Part shown: one piece after another, positions 1 to 51,006 of the stretch
Numbering within the stretch: the stretch's first letter is position 1
Layout: every line of letters begins with the position of its first letter
Source: Vezdaea acicularis
Lineage: Eukaryota
DNA: 51,006 bases
Assembly (NCBI GenBank): GCA_026025075.1
Contig: JAPEUI010000112.1
Span: forward strand, 1-51,006
Direction: 5' to 3'
Made by a program: the position numbers and the translations under genes
The notes under the pieces: generated by a model
Seen by the model: the letters and a program-made list of their open reading frames with translations, nothing else
Told to the model about the DNA's origin: nothing
Database searches by the model: none

Positions 1-2450
1 AACTAAGATGATGCAAGAGAAGGCGGCGGAGAGCGATGAAACTGAAACAAGTGACAAAGGCCGATGACTGAGGCCAGCGCAGCGGCCGCCTCCAACGCCA
101 TCCATTCGCCCTCGCCCTTGCGGTTGCAGTTCCGTTCGCATCTGATCGACTAATACCGAAGAGCATCGCATCCACAGCGGGACGGAATGTGGTCCTCTCA
201 GCGACACGAGCAGAACAAGCCGTGCGAAGGGTTGAGGGTCGCAAGGTCCGTGCAATCCCGTTGTGGCCCCCCCTCCATCGTCAAACGAACACGGCCCCCT
301 CCGGCGTGACGGGCTGCGAGTACAACGATATACCGTACTTTGCTAACTCGGTGTTTATTCTGAATGGACAGGACGAACACGAGGGAGCGAGACAGTCGGA
401 CAGACGCAACCCGCGTTTGCAAGGCAGCGCTCGCTGCTGTCAGACGTGCATCGCCAGTTGCCCCATTATCCCGTCCCGACCGAACTTCGATCGCATAACG
501 GCGAGATAGATACTTTCCTAACCGCTGCGGCGCTTAACGAGATCGAATCACATCGCCGACCAACCACCACACGCCCTCAGGAGGAGCCATGATACGCCGC
601 GAATCATCGTCTCGAAGCGCCCTCTCCACGGGCCCCCTTCATCGACGATGCTCGAGGATGGCGCGCTCGCTCGCTCGGGCTGCCCTGACGTGGCACCGGT
701 GAACCCTCTTACCGTCGGCGGCAGTGTGATCAAATCAACTCGCCCAGTTGCGCCGCTCGACTAGACCAAGGGACCGGATGGCAAAAAGTAACTTTCCCTT
801 AAGCCAGAGATAGAGAACAATAAGCCGCATCGATGCCGAATGCCCGTTTCCGGCGTCGTGCATCATCTTGACGGGTTTGACCGCCTTGGCTAGCCCGTCA
901 CCTGGCGTGCGGGATGAGGAATGAAAAAAGCGACGGTCGATGGCAATGATATGATACACGATGCGCGACGAGAATGCACCAAGTACCTTTGGGATGTATT
1001 GTACCTGAGAGCAAGCGAGAGAGTCGAAAGAACGGCTGGGATGATCCACGTTTCCCCGTGCCCGCCCGAAGATGTCTTCCATCCCATCCGGCGCGCATGG
1101 CGTCGCTGTGCGGCAGAATATCTGACGGCTTGCATCTCTCTGCTCTTTCTGGGGCGCGCACATCCACGCACATGCGCGATAGACACCGATCTGTGAGAGG
1201 AGGAAGAAGACGAGACGGATATGGTAATTGCAAATGCGCCCGAGCCCGGACGTTGAAATATCTCGTCTCCTCTATTTCGATCGAGGGCTAGCACACCTCG
1301 GGTCGCGCGGATGGAGCAGCACACCCGCAGATACGGCCATCATAACTCTTCCACGACATCTGACGTGAACCCCCTGGCACGCTGCAGCGAGCGAGCATGT
1401 GGATGTGGACGCGGATGTGAATGTCGATGAAATGTGGACGCCAAGCTCAAACAAGGAATTTTCCACACGAGAATGCCCTAACCGAAAAGAAGGGGGGAAA
1501 GGGAAGACCATGGGAAAAGACCGCGGCTCCGCTCGACCCTATCACATCAACTCCACCTCGATAGACACCTATCAGCATCAGCCACCCCCTCCCCGACTTA
1601 TCAGAACGAGCTAGTCAACGACTCGAGTAGTCAATCGCGTCTCAGAGCTTTTCTTGCATTCTGCAGCCACCTCATCCCCTGCCAAGACCATATCACCAGA
1701 CCCCGCCCCTCTCTTAGCTCGAGCTTTTTCGATAAAGCCCACCCCGCTTGCCCAATCAGATTGCAGCAGCCATCAATCATGCTCAGTTAATATCCTAATG
1801 TCTGAATCCCTACTGGCTTTTAGAATGGGAGAGGAGGGGGGTGGGGGGGGACAGGATAGGCATATGACATGTGCGTACGAGGAGTACATCATCATCATCA
1901 TCACCATGATATCAGCACCCTTCCTCCCTCCCTCCGTCCTGTTATTGGCGTGGGGGTTTGTTTTTATTGTCGTCGGGGTTGACTGCTATGTGACCTTCAG
2001 GCTACGAAGGTGTCACGTTGGCGGGCAGACGGATGGATTTCGTTATAACGGGAAGAGCATTTCACGCAACGGTCAGATTATCAGAGTCGTGTTTGAAGAA
2101 AGCTGGCTCTTGATTTGATTAGTTATGACTAGGGTGTGCTTATATGTATAGGGCTAGGCACAGAAACCGTGAACGCCTTGCTGGCTGCTGCCATGGCCGG
2201 TCCTTGGTCAGTAGAACTTCCCTCCAATTATCACTCGCCATCTCCTTCGCTTCATGACTCAATCAAAAGTTCAAAGGCTCACACGTGAATATGCGGCTAG
2301 AAATCGCAAGGCTGAACCACTCTATCTGGCAAAGATCAGAAGGCTACCACTCATGACCTCCAAGAATCTAGATCGCACAGAACGAGAGCTGCCAATCTCG
2401 TCCGTTAGGGACTCAAGCTATTCTATCGCTCAAGTCTTAAATTAGATCAC

Positions 2451-5400
2451 ATGGATCAGGTGGAAACAGGGATCGACCGTGAGGAGCATGGCCTGTGTTT
2501 ACTCTCTCTTGGTGAATACTGCTCCTTCGTATGTTACTCAGGCCTTACACTAACGTTTCCTGGGACTTGTAGATGGTGGTGGTGTGCGTGGGCTGTCGAC
2601 GCTCTACATTCTTCAAGGGCTGATGAAAAGGATCAATCTGGAGCGCACAAAAGCTGGGCTCTCGAAAGTAAAGCCATGCGAGGTATTCGACCTTATTGGA
2701 GGTACATCCACTGGCGGGTGAGTCTTCTCTAAAGTAAAGTCTCAAGCAGACAGAAGCTATTTCTGGAAACCCAAACAGATTAGGACCCTTACTGACCTGC
2801 GGTCCTCCAGCCTTATTGCCATAATGCTTGGTCGTCTTGAGATGGATGTCGAGTCGTGTATTGACGCTTACACGCGTCTGATGGGGGATGTGTTCAGCAA
2901 GCGTAAGAAGCCAATCGACTGGCGACTCAACGTCAAGGGACAGTTCAGCTCCAAAGATCTCGAAACAGCAATCAAAAGCCTGATACCCCCACGCGAAGAT
3001 GCAGAAAAGGCTCTACTCAATGATAGCTTGTCGGAGAGGCGAGCATGTCGAGTGTGAGCGACTGCTCAACAAGATAGATTCTATTCGCCATAGCACTGAC
3101 CTAGTCTAGATTCGTATGCGCCGTCCGGAAGAGCAACAAGTCGCTAGCAAGATTTCGCAGCTACTCTTGCGATGCTTACTTGACCGAAGAAGGCGTTACC
3201 ATCTGGCAGGCTGCACGAGCGACTTCTGCAGCCACGTCTTTTTTCGATCCTATCACAATCGGAGAAGGAGCTCAAGGCCGAGAATACGTTGATGGTGCTC
3301 TCGGATTCAACAATCCACTGGATGAAGTTTGGCTCGAAGCACAAGATATCTGGACGCCGGAGGATGGTAAACTTGAGTCGATGCTGAAATGTATCGTCTC
3401 CATAGGGACCGGGAATCCGGGAACTTCTACGATCGGAGATAAGCCATGGACGATTCTTGAAACTCTCAAAGACATTGCCACATCGACTGAGAACACCGAA
3501 CGAGTGTTCGCTATGAAGCACAAGGACCTTCTCATCAACAATGAGCGGCGGTATTTTAGATTCAATGTCGAGCAAGGATTACAGAATGTGGGCCTAGAAG
3601 AACACGAGCGCCAAGGCGAGATTGTTGATGCGACAATGGCATATCTGAATGATCATCAAGTCGTTAGAAATCAATTTCGGGATTGCGCTCTTAATCTATG
3701 CCGTAAGGAATGTATGTTAATTGAAGACTTTTCATGAGTATCATATAGCTCAATAACATGTACTGATGCTTTATCAGTCTGGTATGGAAAGAAAACTGAT
3801 TACCACAAATTGGCCTTCGCATTTCCAGAATCCTCGATTGATCCATTCAAAGTAACCTTCTATCTGTCTGATGCGCCAGAGATTGATTACTTCACGGGCA
3901 GGGAATCAATTATGACATCAATGGAGCGGATTCTCCTACCTTTCGATGAGCCACAACGCAAAGTGGTCGTACTACATGGCTTGGGAGGAATAGGAAAGAC
4001 TCAATCAGCCATTCATTTTGCAAAGCAACATAAACAAAACTACACTGCTGTCTTATGGTTCAACGCCAAAGATGAAGACACATTAGGGCAGAGTTTCCGC
4101 CAACATACTAGCAGAATTCAAGATCAAACTACTCACCAGCTTTTATTAGACGACTCAAAAGATCTGTCTTCACCCAAAAAGCTGGTGCATGCAGTAAAGC
4201 GTTGGCTAGCGTTACCACGGAATGACCAATGGCTGCTGATATTCGACAACGTTGACAATCCAAAGATCCCTCAGAACCGTGACCAGTCAGCGTATGACAT
4301 TCGATCCTACTTTCCAGAAGCTCATCATGGCTCAATCATTGTCACGACGCGCTGGGCAAGTCTTAGAATCGGAAAGCTTGTGGAGGTATCCAAATTGCTG
4401 GACCACAAGCAAAGTCTTCAAATTCTAGCGCAGACTTCTGGCCGAGTCGACATAGAAGAAGGTAAGCTTAGGTGTTCGCTCCCAATTGTAACATTATACT
4501 GACACGAGATAGAGCCTAAGGTGAGGGAGTTGGTAGAAACGCTCGACGGGCTTCCTCTTGCATTGGCTACTGCCGGAACATATCTCAGTCTTGAATCAAT
4601 TGCGGTCTCGGAATATCTTCACGAATATCACCAATCATGGTTAGAGCTGCAGCAGACAACTCCGGAGCTATTATCTTACGATCGAACGCTCTACTCTACA
4701 TGGAATATTTCGTACAATCTTATCGCAAAGCAACAAGATGAAGTTGCCATAAATCTCTTGCGACTATGGGCATACTTTGATAATCAAGATCTTTGGTTCG
4801 ATCTTCTAGCCGCTGGAGTGAAGGACACTCCCGTTTGGCTGAAACACGCTGTTCGATCTAAATTGACTTTCACTGCAGCGATGCGCAAATTGTGTGATCA
4901 CAATCTCGTTTACGGTCTAAGAGACTCCGGTGGATATGGCATGCATCCTTGTGTTCATGCCTGGATAGTAAATGTTTTGAACAACAAGTTTGAAGATTGT
5001 AACATTAGTCTGGCTCTCAACTGTGTAGGATCTTTGGTACCAACAGCACCAGCTGTAGGCGATTCGGCCATAAAACGAAGACTTCTGCCTCATGCTAATC
5101 GGTGTATGCGCTTACTATCTGCCAATAATCAGACCGGAGCTGTCCTTGAGATTGCAAACCCAGTTGACATCGATGCCTTTCACAATCTTGGCCTTCTGTA
5201 TAGCGATCTAGGCAAGCTGCAAGAGGCCGAGGCGATGTATCAGCGAGCATTGAAGGGGAAGGAGAAGGCCTGGGGTCCAGATCACACGTCCACGCTCGTG
5301 ACAGTTAACAACCTAGGCAGCCTGTACAGCGACCAAGGCAAGCTGCAAGAGGCCGAGGCGATGTATCAGCGAGCATTGAAGGGGAAGGAGAAGGCCAGGG

Positions 5401-6857
5401 GTCCGAATCACCCGTCCACGCTCGTGACAGTCAACAACCTTGGCCTTCTGTACAGCGACCAAGGCAAGCTGCAAGAGGCCGAGGCGATGTATCAGCGAGC
5501 ATTGAAGGGGAAGGAGAAGGCCTGGGGTCCGGATCACACGTCCACGCTCGTGACAGTCAACAACCTTGGCCATCTGTACAACGACCAAGGCAAGCTGCAG
5601 GAGGCCGAGGCGATGTATCAGCGAGCATTGAAAGGGTACGAGAAGGCCTGGGGTCCAGACCACACGTCCACGCTCGTGACAGTCAACAACCTTGGCCTTC
5701 TGTACAGCGACCAAGGCAAGCTGCAAGAGGCTGAGACGATGTATCAGCGAGCATTGAAGGGGTACGAGAAGGCCTGGGGTCCGAATCACCCGTCCACACT
5801 CGAGACAGTCAATGACCTAGGCTTTCTGTACGGCGCCCAAGGCAAGCTACAGGAGGCCGAGGCAATGTATCAGCGAGCATTGAAGGGGAAGGAGAAGGCC
5901 TTGGGTCCAGATCACACATCCACGCTCAGCACAGTCAACGACCTAGGCAGCCTGTACAGCGCCCAAGACAAGCTGCAGGAGGCTGAGGCGATGTATCAGC
6001 GAGCATTGAAGGGGTACGAGAAGGCCAGGGGTCCGGATCACACGTCCACGCTCAACATAATCAACAACCTAGGCCTTCTGTACAAAGACCAAGGCAAGCT
6101 GCAGGAGGCTGAGGCAATGTATCAGCGAGCATTGAAGGGTTTAGAGAAGGCCTACGGTTCGGTTCACACGTCCACGCTCAACACAGTCAACAACCTAGGC
6201 CTTCTGTACAGCGCCCAAGACAAGCTGCAGGAGGCTGAGACGATGTATCAGCGAGCATTGAAGGGATTGGAGAGGGCCTACGGTCCGGATCACACATCCA
6301 CGCTCAGCACAGTCAATAACCTAGGCATCCTCTACCGCGGCCAAGGCAAGCTACAGGAGGCCGAGGCGATGTATCAGCGAGCATTGAAGGGGTACGAGAA
6401 GGCCAGGGGTCCGGATCACACGTCCACGCTCAACATAATCAACAACCTAGGCTTTCTGTACGGCGCCCAAGGCAAGCTGCAAGAGGCCGAGGCGATGTAT
6501 CAGCGAGCATTGAAGGGGTACGAGAAGGCCAGGGGTCCAGATCACACGTCCACGCTCGGCATAGTCAACAACCTAGGCATCCTGTATAAAGACCAAGGCA
6601 AGCTGCAGGAGGCCGAGGCAATGTATCAGCGAGCACTGAAGGGGTTAGAGAAGGCTTACGGTTCGAATCACACGTCCACGCTCAACACAGTCAACAACCT
6701 AGGCTTTCTGTACGGCGCCCAAGGCAAGCTGCGGGAGGCCGAGGCTATGTATCAGCGAGCATTGAAGGGGTACAAGGAGAAAATGGGCTCAACACATCGA
6801 AATACATTGGTAATATCTGAAAGTCTGCAAAAAATCCACGAGAAAATGATTAGCTAA
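2451..6857 (+). CDS. Fungal NLR: patatin-like phospholipase - NB-ARC - TPR (PLP-1-like architecture), ~1359 aa, 6 exons
   Basis: Exons 2451-2511, 2573-2717, 2811-3053, 3110-3711, 3778-4461, 4513-6857 join in frame through GT-AG introns (4080 nt). Patatin motifs LSLDGGGVRG, GTSTG, DGA; NB-ARC Walker A GLGGIGKT, Walker B WLLIFDNVD, GLPLAL, MHP; C-terminal TPR array. Confidence 0.93.
5181..6818 (+). repeat. Coding tandem array of 13 x 126-bp (42-aa) high-identity TPR repeats
   Basis: Unit consensus NNLGxLYxxQGKLQEAEAMYQRALKGxEKAxGPDHTSTLxxV; DNA core atgtatcagcgagcattgaaggg recurs every 126 nt. Confidence 0.97.
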
Positions 6858-7095
6858 AAATGAAAGAATCCTCAATCGATATTCTAGGCTATGCTGGACT
6901 CGAAAAAGGAAATGTGATCTGGGGTTAATAAGTCTAATGAACGGAAAGGCTCGGATAATTTTCACAAGTCCTTTGGCCTGTGATGATTCGGACATGGAAA
7001 GTGCCGCGAGGTTATAGACTCTTCGGTCGATCTCAAATTGGACCGGAAAATTCGCCATCTACCCAAGGGGTTTTGACGTGACCAGAACATCCATA

Positions 7096-7190
7096 ATATA
7101 CCAAACAACGCCGGATATTCTAGACAACACCGAATATACCAGACAGTGCCGAGTATACCGGATAACGCCAAATACACCAGACAACGCCGA
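7096..7190. repeat. Minisatellite, 5 x 19 bp, degenerate (consensus atataccagacaacgccga)
   Basis: Units at 7096, 7115, 7134, 7153, 7172 read directly. Confidence 0.85.
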
Positions 7191-7261
7191 GAATCAACTC
7201 CAACAGTCAGCGAGATAACTTCACCTTTGGACGCGGTACTAACATCTGGTTTTTGCCCCAG

Positions 7262-7787
7262 ATGTCTTTCCAACAACCCATCATTGAACGGGGGACCTGG
7301 CAATACCTCATGAACGGCGAAACGCCTACGCACAGGCGAAAAAAAGGGGCCGAGGAATGGGGAGGCTATAGAAGTGGCGCCCACCGCCGAAAACGCGTAC
7401 CGGGTCTGCGTGGTACGAGAAAACCAGGGAGACGACGAACCGAAGCATTGGTCCCTCTTTGTCTACCAGGAAGGCGTCATCGGTGGCATGATCATGCAAG
7501 TCAGCGGCGACGCCCTGTTCATGCATCACCTACACGATCCGGACTTTGATATTTTTCATTCCCCTTCTTTCAAAGATCAATTTGACTTGGGAACGGTCAC
7601 GGAAACGCAGCGCGGCCAGATCTGGGCCGCTGCTCACCAAATTGCGCCTCCTCGAGCTGATTCCCAAGCTCAGGTAACCGAGAACTGTCAGGGTTGGACT
7701 ATTCGGTTGGTCCAATGGCTGGTAGAGCAGGGTATGGTTGAACCGCGCTAGATTGAATCGCTCAGGGGCATGACGGAGCCCGTCTGA
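7262..7787 (+). pseudogene. Probable pseudogene of a small fungal protein with permuted papain-like His/Cys motifs (DUF6540-like, tentative)
   Basis: ATG 7262 gives MSFQQPIIERGTWQYL...GAEEW. Removing one base in the A-run (7339-7345) or a G-run (7346-7349 or 7359-7362) links it to EAIEVAPTAENAYRVCVVRENQGDDEPKHWSLF...ENCQGWTIRLV. In-frame TAG at 7749-7751 is followed by IESLRGMTEPV-TGA. Confidence 0.65.
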
Positions 7788-7875
7788 TGGAAACTCTCAT
7801 GGGCGCAGGCGGCTTCGCGAAGAGTTCACGAGGCCGAGAGGGGCGCTGAGTTCAACGCCCAGGGAATGAAGATAT

Positions 7876-7970
7876 GGTTAAACCAGCTTGCCGTGGTTAA
7901 GTCAGCTTGCCGTGGTTAAATCAGCTTGCCGTGGTTAAATCAGCTTGCCGTGGTTAAATCAGCTTCCCGT
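7876..7970. repeat. Minisatellite, 5 x 19 bp, nearly perfect (ggttaaatcagcttgccgt)
   Basis: Units at 7876, 7895, 7914, 7933, 7952, each with at most one substitution from consensus. Confidence 0.95.
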
Positions 7971-8156
7971 CATTTCATCAGTCAAGCCAGTTATGCCAGC
8001 CAGCACAGCTACCGAGGCCATATTTCTACCAACCCCTTAGGTATACAAGTACATAATGAGATAAAGATCTAGAGCGCAATTATGCCACACATATATTTCC
8101 GACTCCTCAAGGACAATGCAATGAATCCGCTCCCAATCCGAGTCCTATCATTACAA

Positions 8157-10377
<2,221 letters not shown>

Positions 10378-10943
10378 ATCGTCCCCTGAATTCGGGCCTC
10401 AACAAAGCTGCTCTTCGCCGGAGCAAGAGAGGGAGGAAGGAGGGCGCTTTCACGCAGATTTAGGGGCTATACAAGCTCCACAACGCAGCGATCGGCGAAG
10501 CGCTGGAAAATTAAAACTTCTCAGGCTGACATGCTGCAGCTCTTACAGTTTCAGAGAAGTAGTGGAATTGTCGACCTATACTAGAAAGAGCGTGTAGAGT
10601 TGGTCAGGTGGCGGTATGAAATCTTGTAGAAAGATGCGATCTTCAAGTACTCTCTCAGGCACGCGATCTTCAATTTGGCGAAGTGGCTTGAATTATTGCC
10701 ATGACAGCTTCGTCACGCGCGGGCACATTAAGGCATTTACTGGCATTTTCATGTCTTATCATCATTTTCTACAAGAGCGCTGCTAATGCTGGAGTAGTAT
10801 TACAATGCTGTAGCGCGCTGTATATTTTAGGAGGTGCGCTAATGTCTCCCCGGGGGTTCTTCAATCTCGACTTCGTGATTGCGGCACAAGACTCTGAGGC
10901 TCTCCTCCGATCATCCATCACCTTGGAATCAGACATACTCATG

Positions 10944-36331: not shown

Positions 36332-37947
36332 ATGGCCACAGTAATCCCTCCACCTAGTAAAAGAATCAAAACTGCGGCTGCAGCCAGGGCGCGTGAGCAG
36401 CAGGATGTGGCTGAAGTGGCTCTACCATCTGGAAGTATTCGAATCCAATTCCATGACTACTCGACAAGAAAGACCGTCGGCGCACCAGTCCTTGTCCCTC
36501 TAGCATATTCCAAACCATCAGACCTACAACAAATATATAGGTCATTACAAGGAGATGTTAGTCTACTTGCATAGCTAGTCGGAATCTAAACGCTGACGGG
36601 TACTAGGATGCGTCCAAAGACCATTCCTTTCAGTTCGTGTTGATGCCAAAGAAAAGTGGCAGTGAAGATGTGGCCACTTCATCAGAACTCTTAGTAAAGC
36701 GGAATTTGTTTGATGATGTGATCGAGGCTGGGTACAAGACTACAGAGGAGGATGCCGCCATATTTGTGAGGCCACAAGCAGTATTTAAGGTCAGAGCTGT
36801 TACAAGATGCTCGTCAAGTATCTCTGGACACGGAGAGGCTATACTTGCAACACAATTCTCTCCTAGGAACTCTTCAAGGATGGCTAGCGGCAGCGGCGAT
36901 TCTACGGCACGTATATGGGATTGCGACACAGGTACACCATTGCATACCCTCAAAGGCCATACGAGTTGGGTGCTTGCGGTAGCCTGGTCGCCCGATGATA
37001 CAACAATTGCGACCGGAAGCATGGACAACACCGTCCGTCTTTGGACAGCTATGACAGGCAAGCAGATGGGAAGCCCTATGAAAGGTCACACCAAGTGGGT
37101 TCGAAATCTGGCATGGGAGCCCTATCATGTTCAGAGACCGGGAAACCCTAGATTAGCATCGGCGTCGAAAGATGCGACGGTGAGGATATGGAATACCACT
37201 ATTCAGCGAGTCGAGATCGTGTTAAGTGGACATAAAGGCTCTGTTTCCTCTGTCAAATGGGGAGGCCTTGGATACATTTACACGGCGTCAAACGATAAGA
37301 CAATCAAAGTTTGGAAGGTAGAGAATGGAATACTGGCATATACGCTCAACGCACACGCCCACTGGGTCAATCATCTTGCGCTCTCCACTGATTTCGTCTT
37401 ACGCACTGGCTACTACGATCACACAGGAAAAGTTCCAGAAAATGAAGCTGGAAAAATAGCAAAGGCAAAGTCGAGATTCGAGAAATCAGCCATGCGGGGT
37501 GGTGAGATCATCGAGCGACTAGTTTCAGCAAGTGATGATTTTACAATGTATTTATGGGAGCCTTTCAAGTCAACAAAGCCAATCCAAAGGCTCCTGGGCC
37601 ATCAAAAGCAAGTCAATCATGTAACTTTCTCCCCAGACGGCTTTTATATTGCCTCGACTTCCTTTGACAATCATATCAAGCTCTGGAGTGCTCAAGAGGG
37701 CAAATTCATTTTCACTCTTCGCGGTCATGTCGCTCCAGTTTATCAATGCGCATTCTCACCCGACTCGCGTCTATTGGTAAGCGCATCAAAAGACACTACC
37801 CTCAAGGTATGGGATGTTCAGACAGGAAAACTCTCGACAGATCTTCCTGGTCACAAGGATGAGGTATATGCTGTGGACTGGAGTCCTGATGGGCTGATGG
37901 TTGGTAGCGGAGGAAAGGATAAAGCAGTTCGGATCTGGAAAAACTGA
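36332..37947 (+). CDS. RSA4: WD40 ribosome assembly protein Rsa4 / Notchless
   Basis: MATVIPPPSKR, PQAVFKVRAVTRCSSSISGHGEAIL, HAHWVNHLALSTD, SASDDFTMYLW; one intron (~36557-36607). Confidence 0.93.
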
Positions 37948-49412: not shown

Positions 49413-49642
49413 GATAATTTATGTACCAATATGAGAACCCGACTTGCTCCACTTGATTGAAGCTGTCCGACAAACGGTCTATGCTTAAAACGTGATATAA
49501 AGACAGACTGGCAATGCTGTTCGTCCGAGCCGATGCAAAATATTCCTCTGCTGTCCCAAGACTTCACCATCGCTTAAAGTTCATGCTTACTCCCAAAGTT
49601 GTGTTTCTAACCAATATCAAGGGGTAATGTTGAGGACCTGAT

Positions 49643-51006
49643 TCACATAACAATACAACCAATCCCATACATCGCCCTCTCCACCTTAGACTTGACCTGA
49701 TACCAGTCTGCACGTCTCTGCGCGAATTCGTACACCTCTTCTGCGCGAAAAACACCGTAGAAGCGATCGCTGTCGGCGATCACAGTCGCCATGTCTTTCG
49801 CATCCTCGGGCGCAATAAGGTAGATCTGGGCAAGTTCAATCAGAGCTTTATAGTAGGTAAGGAGGTCTGCGTTGCGGAGAGAAGTTATGTAGCTTGTGTA
49901 ATGCGTCATGTCGCTAGAAGGCTGGGGGTTAGAATGAGGTATTGGAAGAAGCGGGACAAGACTTACGAGATAAGCTTCATAGAACCATCGACAGAAACTC
50001 GTTGCCTTTTCAGGTGCTTGCATAACGCGGCAAAGAGCCGAAGCCCTATTTCTTGATTGAAGACATCCAACATGTTCTTATCCGTGCTCCCCACTAGCAT
50101 CTTCGTATGCGAAGATACTAGCTCCACGATTCGCAAGGCAGTTACACTCGGGCCTACATCAAACGGTTCGCCTGGCGTGGGGTTGAAGTCCGTGGTGTCC
50201 TGTGTCGTCGCGCATAGGTACTCGACTTCGTCCATCAGGACGTCAATACCCTTGTTCAGACCTGCAGCAACCCTCTCATCAAGCATCTGCTCAAATCTCT
50301 TCTTCTCTTTGACAGCTGGATCCAGGAAATCATTAGCATCAACCAGCTTCTTGGCCACTAGCTCCTGCTGGTAGAAAACGTCGATCATCTGCTGAATCAA
50401 ATCGCCCACGCTTACCAGCTCCAGAAACATTACCAGTGGTGCTACGCCAGGCTGAGAATGCTCGCTAACTTCTCGCGGATTATACTTGGAGAGATGGTCG
50501 ACGGCCTTGTCGAAGCCAGCCTTGATATGCCGCGAGCCCATCATCTGGAGCAGCATGACGAAGATCGTCGCGCATTGTTCCTTTGCTTCCTGGCCCGTCT
50601 GACCGCTGAAGCGGACGAAAAGAGCAACGCGTTCCAGAGAAGACTTTGCGTATTTGACGAGGTTGAGAGCAACCTCAATACTAAAGAGAGATCGGATGCC
50701 CTCAAGGCGAGTGGCCATTATGGCCGCTTTGGCGGCGAGCTCAGTCGTTATCGCCTCCACTCCGGGTGTCGATGGTGGCACAGGCGATATAGAGCGCCCG
50801 TTAAGCAGAGTTGGTGTAGAAGATCTATTGGGCACAGAAAGTTGCTTTTGATCAGCAGAAAAACTTGTCGTGCCGTTCGGTGCGACGGGCTTGCTCGCGG
50901 TAAAAGGCATAGCTACGACGTTAACTGGCATCATGACTACCTTCTTGAATGAAGAGAGGAAGTCTCGCTTATCAGCAACTCTGTTGACATTGGCCATGAA
51001 GTATGA
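49643..51006 (-). CDS. RCY1: Recyclin-1 (Sec10-like domain F-box protein), 3' part only
   Basis: LEGIRSLFSIEVALNLV, KKRFEQMLDERVAAGLNKGIDVLM, RRADWYQVK, C-terminal CaaX (CIVM); runs off the window. Confidence 0.85.

Follow-up and report, generated by a model that had tools for sequence, protein, structure and literature searches.

Does a locus that falls apart into short, frame-shifted pieces when read from stop to stop encode one intact immune receptor, and, if so, is this receptor of the kind by which fungi tell self from non-self? The question is raised by positions 2451-6857 (forward strand) of contig JAPEUI010000112.1 from the Vezdaea acicularis assembly GCA_026025075.1, of which we analyzed positions 1 to 51,006, hereinafter the window. 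Here we argue that this stretch is a whole six-exon gene with a predicted single product of 1359 amino acids (aa). It is probably an intact filamentous-ascomycete gene for a nucleotide-binding oligomerization domain (NOD)-like receptor (NLR), that is, a signal transduction ATPase with numerous domains (STAND ATPase), with the patatin/NB-ARC/TPR architecture, which would work as a ligand-triggered, lipase-armed cell-death receptor.

Gene model and predicted architecture

Read from stop to stop, the locus consists of six open reading frames (ORFs) that lie in different frames, namely 2409-2732, 2554-2721, 2722-3057, 3105-3737, 3738-4502 and 4503-6857. Upon splicing, the exons add up to 4080 nt, i.e. 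exactly 1359 codons and a terminal TAA, and the joined frame is open throughout. All five introns have GT..AG borders and a branch motif of the CTAAC/CTGAC/CTGAT type close to the acceptor, as is usual in ascomycete introns, where such a motif shortly precedes the acceptor; furthermore, the alignment to the homologues of the protein is free of gaps at each of the five junctions.

Specifically, exon 1 (2451-2511; this and all following parts of the gene are on the plus strand) starts with the ATG, encodes aa 1-20 and ends in phase 1 within the codon of the Asp that precedes the GGGVRG motif; the N-terminus that it encodes can be aligned with the homologues P0001, P0006, P0007, P0012 and P0014 (...GLCLLSLDGGGVRG). 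Intron 1 (2512-2572; 61 nt, GTGAAT...TAG, with a branch-like CTAAC) leads to exon 2 (2573-2717), which carries both the oxyanion loop GGGVRG and the nucleophile elbow GTSTG, its junction being aligned without gaps. Exon 3 (2811-3053), which covers the middle of the patatin domain, is flanked by intron 2 (2718-2810; 93 nt, GTGAGT...CAG, branch-like CTGAC) and intron 3 (3054-3109; 56 nt, GTGAGC...TAG, branch-like CTGAC). At the site of the latter, 17 additional residues are seen in P0003 only among the aligned homologues, and these are most simply explained as an unspliced intron in the annotation of P0003. The portion of the patatin domain nearest the C-terminus, which includes the catalytic Asp211, is encoded by exon 4 (3110-3711), as is the linker that follows it. 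For the adjoining intron 4 (3712-3777; 66 nt, GTATGT...CAG), an alternative in-frame donor at 3703 was considered and dropped in favor of 3712, because the KEFW that P0001, P0002 and P0003 have across this junction fits the donor at 3712. Exon 5 (3778-4461) encodes the nucleotide-binding core of NB-ARC, and, past intron 5 (4462-4512; 51 nt, GTAAGC...TAG, branch-like CTGAC), exon 6 (4513-6857) encodes the remaining NB-ARC/ARC region and the TPR sensor and ends with the TAA stop.

The domain content was assessed by running Pfam exon by exon rather than on the spliced protein. Exon 4 matches Patatin (E 3.4e-7, profile positions 146-191 of 191), exon 5 matches NB-ARC (E 1e-7), and exon 6 matches TPR_10 (13 stretches, E 5.6e-153) and TPR_12 (10 stretches), both at about 1e-153. 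When scanned singly, exons 1-3 (20, 48 and 80 aa) gave no Pfam match, because they are too short to be scored alone; they do align without gaps to homologues in which the Patatin domain is scored in full, such as P0001, whose residues 21-227 cover positions 1-191 of the 191 of the profile (E 4.9e-23).

A motif search of the spliced protein located all the residues that an active patatin head is expected to carry: the glycine-rich oxyanion loop of the G-G-G-x-[KR]-G type, GGGVRG, at aa 22-27 (nt 2575-2592), retained in all six aligned homologues that cover this site; the nucleophile Ser66 (codon 2707-2709) within the G-x-S-x-G elbow GTSTG at aa 64-68; and the catalytic Asp211 (codon 3291-3293) within DGA at aa 211-213, of the D-G-[AG] type. 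Farther along the chain come GLGGIGKT at aa 418 (nt 3978-4001), LLIFDNVD at aa 503 (nt 4233-4256), IIVTTR at aa 537 (exon 5, after LLIFDNVD), GLPLA at aa 591 (nt 4548-4562) and MHP at aa 722 (exon 6), which, going by what is generally held about STAND ATPases, we take to be the Walker A, Walker B-like, sensor I, GLPL and MHD motifs, respectively.

A preliminary description of this DNA had proposed one spliced protein of about 1359 aa with intact patatin motifs (GGGVRG, the Ser of GTSTG, the Asp of DGA) and a P-loop, and had singled out the junctions 3711/3778 and 4461/4513 and a Pfam scan as checks. The six-exon model, drawn from sequence signals and the homologue alignment, reproduces both junctions and the predicted length; the motifs and the P-loop are in place; and Patatin, NB-ARC and TPR were all scored. 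Only the count of five ORFs given there has to be corrected, to six.

The three modules, Patatin, NB-ARC and TPR, thus lie, in the gene model, on one spliced open frame that is colinear from end to end with its closest relative, P0001, a hypothetical protein of 1328 aa from a metagenome-assembled genome of Watsoniomyces obsoletus. The two proteins share the same motifs and are 64.6% identical over 1257 aligned columns, the identity being 72.7% in the patatin part and 60% in both the NOD and the TPR parts. The next homologues are found in the lichen fungi Cornicularia (55%) and Alectoria (50%), followed by Penicillium canescens (44%). No allele-level relative was present in the protein collection, where the best matches are 73% identical for the patatin exon (in longer proteins) and 65-70% identical for the NB-ARC exon (in proteins of similar length).

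More remote relatives are plentiful. Of 1331 candidate proteins, 463 match the patatin exon at E<=0.001, and PF01734, PF00931 and TPR families occur together in many of these; the NB-ARC exon retrieves 845 proteins at E<=1e-10 among 966 candidates, none of them above 70% identity. The patatin/NB-ARC/TPR combination is described, in passages of Dyrka 2014 (PMC4986451) and PMC10197012, as one standard design of fungal NLRs, so that, by its predicted architecture, the gene is a further member of a widespread and well-known class.

The repeat array and the proposed mechanism

The repeat array (5166-6803, plus strand) consists of 13 units, each of exactly 42 aa (126 nt); Tandem Repeats Finder reports 5182-6773 with a period of 126, 12.6 copies and 87% matches. 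The mean pairwise identity of the units is 0.84 at the nucleotide level and 0.78 at the amino-acid level for all 13 units, and 0.87 and 0.82, respectively, for the inner 11, with the best single pairs reaching an amino-acid identity of 0.93. At 17 of the 42 positions, the residue is identical in all 13 units. The most variable positions are 3, 4, 10, 13, 14, 32, 36 and 39, where the codons often differ in two or three bases. The Nei-Gojobori dN/dS ratio is 1.6-2.3 for these eight, compared with 0.12-0.20 for the remaining 34 codons, a contrast that is descriptive and comes without a test, the value above 1 being partly built in because the codons were preselected for variability.

The focusing of the variation is backed in a less circular way by the comparison with P0001. 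For every one of the 13 units, the closest match lies within its own protein (0.74-0.93) rather than among the units of P0001 (0.62-0.79), and, in fixed steps of 42 aa, there is no unit-by-unit correspondence between the two arrays. Of the eight variable positions, five (3, 10, 13, 14 and 32) are also among the top eight in P0001 (Spearman rho 0.47, p 0.002). P0001 differs in that its own units are far less alike (mean 0.49, 12 units). The repeat array bears the signature of in-gene homogenization, its variation being concentrated at a small number of positions.

This is a familiar picture. Fungal NLRs are reported, in parts of Dyrka 2014 (PMC4986451), to have TPR motifs of 42 aa with internal conservation and polymorphism in repeat number, and a model based on KLC2 places the variable TPR sites on the concave face. 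The Vezdaea gene has in common with this class the NB-ARC and TPR modules, the 42-aa units, the few variable helix positions, and repeats that are more alike within a gene than between genes. By identity, the best solved-structure matches of the repeat domain are the TPR domains of kinesin light chains (PDB 7ai4, 3nf1, 3edt and others; 31-38% identity, target TM-score up to 0.77). Being cargo adaptors of a motor protein, and having 6 repeats, the kinesin light chains have no more than the fold and the type of repeat in common with the receptor. The array was also modelled with AlphaFold from its single sequence; the model has a mean predicted local distance difference test score (pLDDT) of 87.9, a predicted template modelling score (pTM) of 0.76 and 13 helix pairs. 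In it, positions 3, 4, 10, 13 and 14 fall in the first helix (helix A) of each unit, 32 and 36 where the second helix ends, and 39 in a loop.

Judging by these features and by the studied members of the class, the mechanism of the receptor can be envisaged as follows. The TPR superhelix would keep the receptor off and would bind a ligand via the hypervariable repeat residues. Ligand binding would permit nucleotide exchange in NB-ARC and oligomerization, which, in turn, would activate the N-terminal patatin-like phospholipase with its Ser66/Asp211 dyad; the activated head would then attack membrane lipids, killing the cell. What is sensed may be non-self of the same species, a different organism, or the condition of a host protein under guard. 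In this scheme, expression, ligand binding, oligomerization, lipase activity and cell death are all inferred.

Several points weigh against this scheme, in addition to the preselection of codons mentioned above. The splice model is built from sequence signals and homologue colinearity, and the AlphaFold model covers the repeat array. A PDB sequence search at E<=0.01 returned no match for exon 4 or exon 5, so that the geometry of the active site is read from the motifs alone. The mean amino-acid identity of the units, 0.78-0.82, is somewhat below the cut-off for "highly conserved repeats", given in the relevant part of Dyrka 2014 (PMC4986451) as no less than 85% identity over a stretch of 100 aa or longer, although the value used here is a mean pairwise identity whereas that criterion was applied with T-reks. 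Finally, no gene for a ligand or partner was identified in the window.

A more radical doubt would be that the gene is an unexpressed or decaying copy whose frame is still open by chance and whose function is lost. Such a view may draw on the fact that the gene has been read from DNA alone and that the adjoining DUF6540 ORF seems to have no in-frame start. It is, however, highly improbable: an open frame of 4080 nt over five correctly phased introns would not be expected of a decaying copy, nor would the intactness of all catalytic and nucleotide-binding motifs. The higher identity in the patatin part than in the rest of the protein (72.7% versus 60%) and the low dN/dS ratio at the 34 repeat codons that are not hypervariable both indicate that the gene is under constraint. 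A glycoside hydrolase of family GH47 encoded nearby in the window offers a yardstick from the same homologue fungus, since it is 62% identical to its Watsoniomyces counterpart, as against 72.7% for the patatin part (2451-3711), which is again not what decay would produce. As for the gap between these two figures in itself, it is possible that it reflects strong constraint acting on the lipase head, an unsuitable marker gene, or gene transfer.

One may also ask whether the head, if active, has to kill. A STAND-switched lipase that serves a non-lethal purpose, such as lipid signalling or membrane remodelling, would suit the position of the gene amid housekeeping genes and the fact that a function has been established for very few fungal NLRs; patatin enzymes of other organisms also serve in metabolism and signalling. 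Defence roles of such enzymes in plants are mentioned in a passage of PMC10197012. The only studied proteins of this architecture, as portrayed in portions of PMC12881547 and bioRxiv 10.1101/2022.04.03.486892, do kill, in a patatin-dependent manner, and, going by the section of PMC4986451 concerned, hypervariability focused on a repeat surface typifies recognition receptors and not metabolic regulators. We therefore regard a non-lethal role as very unlikely and retain the cell-death receptor as the preferred interpretation of the gene, bearing in mind that it is the intact motifs that suggest a working receptor.

Allorecognition and the variant contigs

Is the receptor, then, a counterpart of the known incompatibility genes? 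The same tripartite architecture is found in PLP-1 of Neurospora crassa, in HET-Z1 of Podospora anserina and in the patatin NLR of the vic2 locus of Cryphonectria parasitica. For PLP-1, passages in PMC12881547 and bioRxiv 10.1101/2022.04.03.486892 state that death depends on the patatin activity and on the P-loop and that the protein self-associates; its binding to SEC-9 is stated there and in a part of PMC10197012, and an excerpt of PMC11138114 places sec-9 of N. crassa "nearby" plp-1. Accordingly, one could envisage the Vezdaea gene as guarding the SNARE protein SEC-9 and acting as a determinant of heterokaryon or germling incompatibility. In support of such a role, the residues required for death in PLP-1 (the catalytic Ser and Asp and the Walker A lysine) are predicted to be present in the Vezdaea protein as well; this likeness is judged on architecture and motifs, the gene being known here as DNA.

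The surroundings of the gene, as far as the window shows them, speak against a guard of SEC-9. Whereas in N. crassa sec-9 lies near plp-1, no SNARE or SEC9-like domain was scored by Pfam in any of the 93 ORFs of at least 100 aa outside the gene in the whole window, nor did any of the 44 shorter ORFs (40-99 aa) within 1-2500 and 6800-8600 score for a SNARE domain. With the receptor gene so close to the left end of the window, these searches span 2.45 kb upstream and 44 kb downstream of it. The neighbors on the right are the DUF6540 ORF and the GH47 mannosidase gene. Moreover, the closest relatives of the protein come from lichen-forming fungi and not from Sordariomycetes such as those that carry PLP-1; the architecture is common to hundreds of fungal proteins as a standard NLR class; and het genes make up a small share of fungal NLRs.

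Further evidence comes from metagenome DNA contigs of other samples that match the window, for which 27 of the 58 records and 40 of the 424 differences were listed; the figures below are differing letters in the records listed. In run X2, the flank differs by 0.8% (8/965) at 1-1021 and by 3.9% (38/985) at 1074-2278, and the gene, at 2281-5100 (from 170 nt before the ATG, with the five introns included), differs by 5.7% (161/2804). In run X1, the flank at 1-1424 differs by 5.5% (78/1424), the patatin part at 2635-3788 by 2.7% (31/1154), and the NB-ARC part, in four records, by 7-12%. A 12,033-nt contig of run X1 extends leftward out of the window: 1,424 of its bases match the window, and about 10.6 kb lie past the first base. 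In run X5, four short pieces of the flank differ by 3.9-7.8%, two pieces of the patatin part by 2.6-4.2%, and two NB-ARC pieces by 7.2% and 10.7%. Run X7 was set aside, as it offers too little: just three short pieces, of which two do not differ from the window. Among the 20 in-gene differences listed (out of the 424 overall, flank included), 12 change an amino acid. The transitions in run X1 run both ways (A>G 59, T>C 60, C>T 51, G>A 54), so that the variant contigs show no C-to-T bias of the kind left by repeat-induced point mutation (RIP), which is one more argument against a decaying copy. A scan of metagenomes with the patatin exon yielded 46 loci, all at most 51% identical, with no locus from the same species among them.

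The greater divergence of the gene than of the distal flank in run X2 hints at divergent recognition alleles, of which this is the expected pattern, and the jump from 0.8% to 5.7%, like the amino-acid changes in 12 of the 20 listed differences, would suit a long-lived polymorphism such as that of a PLP-1 counterpart. It is a lead only, because the contigs are metagenomic, and paralogues or sister species in metagenomes could produce the same pattern. With these points on either side, identity with the PLP-1/HET-Z1/VIC2 system appears unlikely. A broader proposal, that the gene is a polymorphic het-like recognition gene whose divergent alleles are kept in the populations sampled from moss, soil and air, with the TPR array remodelled by repeat exchange and diversifying selection at the ligand contacts, and with a partner other than an adjacent SEC-9, is speculative and, in our opinion, rather unlikely.

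The preliminary description had likened the protein to PLP-1 and HET-Z, had read it as a working non-self receptor, and had noted that no sec-9 is present in the window. The likeness in architecture holds, as Patatin, NB-ARC and TPR are borne out by Pfam and by the motifs, and the statement on sec-9 agrees with the ORF scans, in none of which a SNARE family was scored. The reading as a non-self receptor survives in part: the gene model, the dyad, the P-loop and the architecture stand, whereas an identity with PLP-1/HET-Z, or a role in allorecognition, does not follow from a design shared by hundreds of fungal proteins and from a locus beside which no SNARE gene was found in the window.

Genomic surroundings and significance

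The remainder of the window provides the setting of the receptor gene. Upstream, 1-2450 holds no convincing gene and no Pfam match above the curated cut-off; the weak matches there (LST1, E 0.0026; others, E of at least 0.03) were discarded as below the curated scores. In this stretch, G+C is 55-58% in the first 2 kb and many frames are open; run X1 shows many small indels in it, clustered at 1274-1290 by a microsatellite of the ATGTGG type. The spacer 3' of the receptor gene contains a 19-nt tandem unit in 5.1 copies (7095-7190) and, as read from the sequence, a unit of about 20 nt (cagcttgccgtggttaaat-like) in about 4 copies at approximately 7880-7965.

Directly 3' of the receptor gene lies the DUF6540 ORF (7314-7748, plus strand; Pfam E 7.7e-21). 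According to a passage in PMC10318531, DUF6540 has a papain-like fold with a Cys-His-His triad and is listed beside LRAT and NlpC/P60. No in-frame ATG precedes the domain; the probable start, the ATG at 7262, comes just after the intron-like end TACTAAC...CAG but lies in another frame, with seven consecutive A, at about 7340, in between. This points to a one-base frameshift in 7262-7751, as in a pseudogene, or to a homopolymer error of the assembly. A conserved pairing of the receptor with DUF6540 was considered and dropped, because relatives of DUF6540 were found by tblastn in none of the 46 loci with patatin relatives.

The next gene encodes the GH47 mannosidase (8497-10398, minus strand), with relatives in Sarea resinae (66%) and Watsoniomyces obsoletus (62%). 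Its named relatives are at most 66% identical, with many classes tied at 58-66%, and the protein P0121 is 97% identical to it; judged on GH47 alone, the source fungus seems to come from a lineage in which no close relative has been sequenced. Four of the metagenome patatin loci (L032, L034, L036 and L045, with identical alignment figures) also have a GH47 gene on the opposite strand, 6.5-8 kb 3' of the patatin gene, at about 16.7-18.1 kb. The arrangement is similar, with the enzyme only 26% identical to the GH47 protein of the window, and it may be a coincidence.

The window is otherwise densely filled with ordinary genes, which encode a proteasome ATPase, enolase, Hsp20, lumazine synthase, a SNF2/RING helicase, a Rhp7-like protein, transporters, a MutS homologue, a WD40 protein, Pex2/12, tropomyosin and Sec10. 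Two of them were considered in relation to the receptor. The gene for the exocyst subunit Sec10 (49634-51006, minus strand; Pfam Sec10_HB E 2e-71) is, like that for SEC-9, an exocytosis gene, yet at about 43 kb from the receptor gene it is too distant to be taken for a linked partner. The WD40 ORF (36607-37944, plus strand), with at least 7 WD repeats, was dismissed as a second NLR, having no tandem repeat in its DNA and no NACHT module, for which there is no room because the MutS gene lies directly upstream; by its N-terminus and repeats, it is a putative ribosome-assembly factor of the Rsa4/Notchless kind.

Taken by itself, the gene leaves the understanding of fungal NLRs as it was. It would add one more well-preserved receptor, with its predicted catalytic and switch residues intact, to a class whose ligands are nearly all uncharacterized, and, given that the GH47 protein of the source fungus has no named relative above 66% identity, it would be an example of such a receptor from a poorly sampled lineage. 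Its value would grow if the divergent alleles proved true in populations, or if a partner gene lay to the left of the window. Should the gene turn out to be a polymorphic, het-like recognition gene, rather unlikely as this may be, NLR-based allorecognition would be extended to fungi in which none is known.

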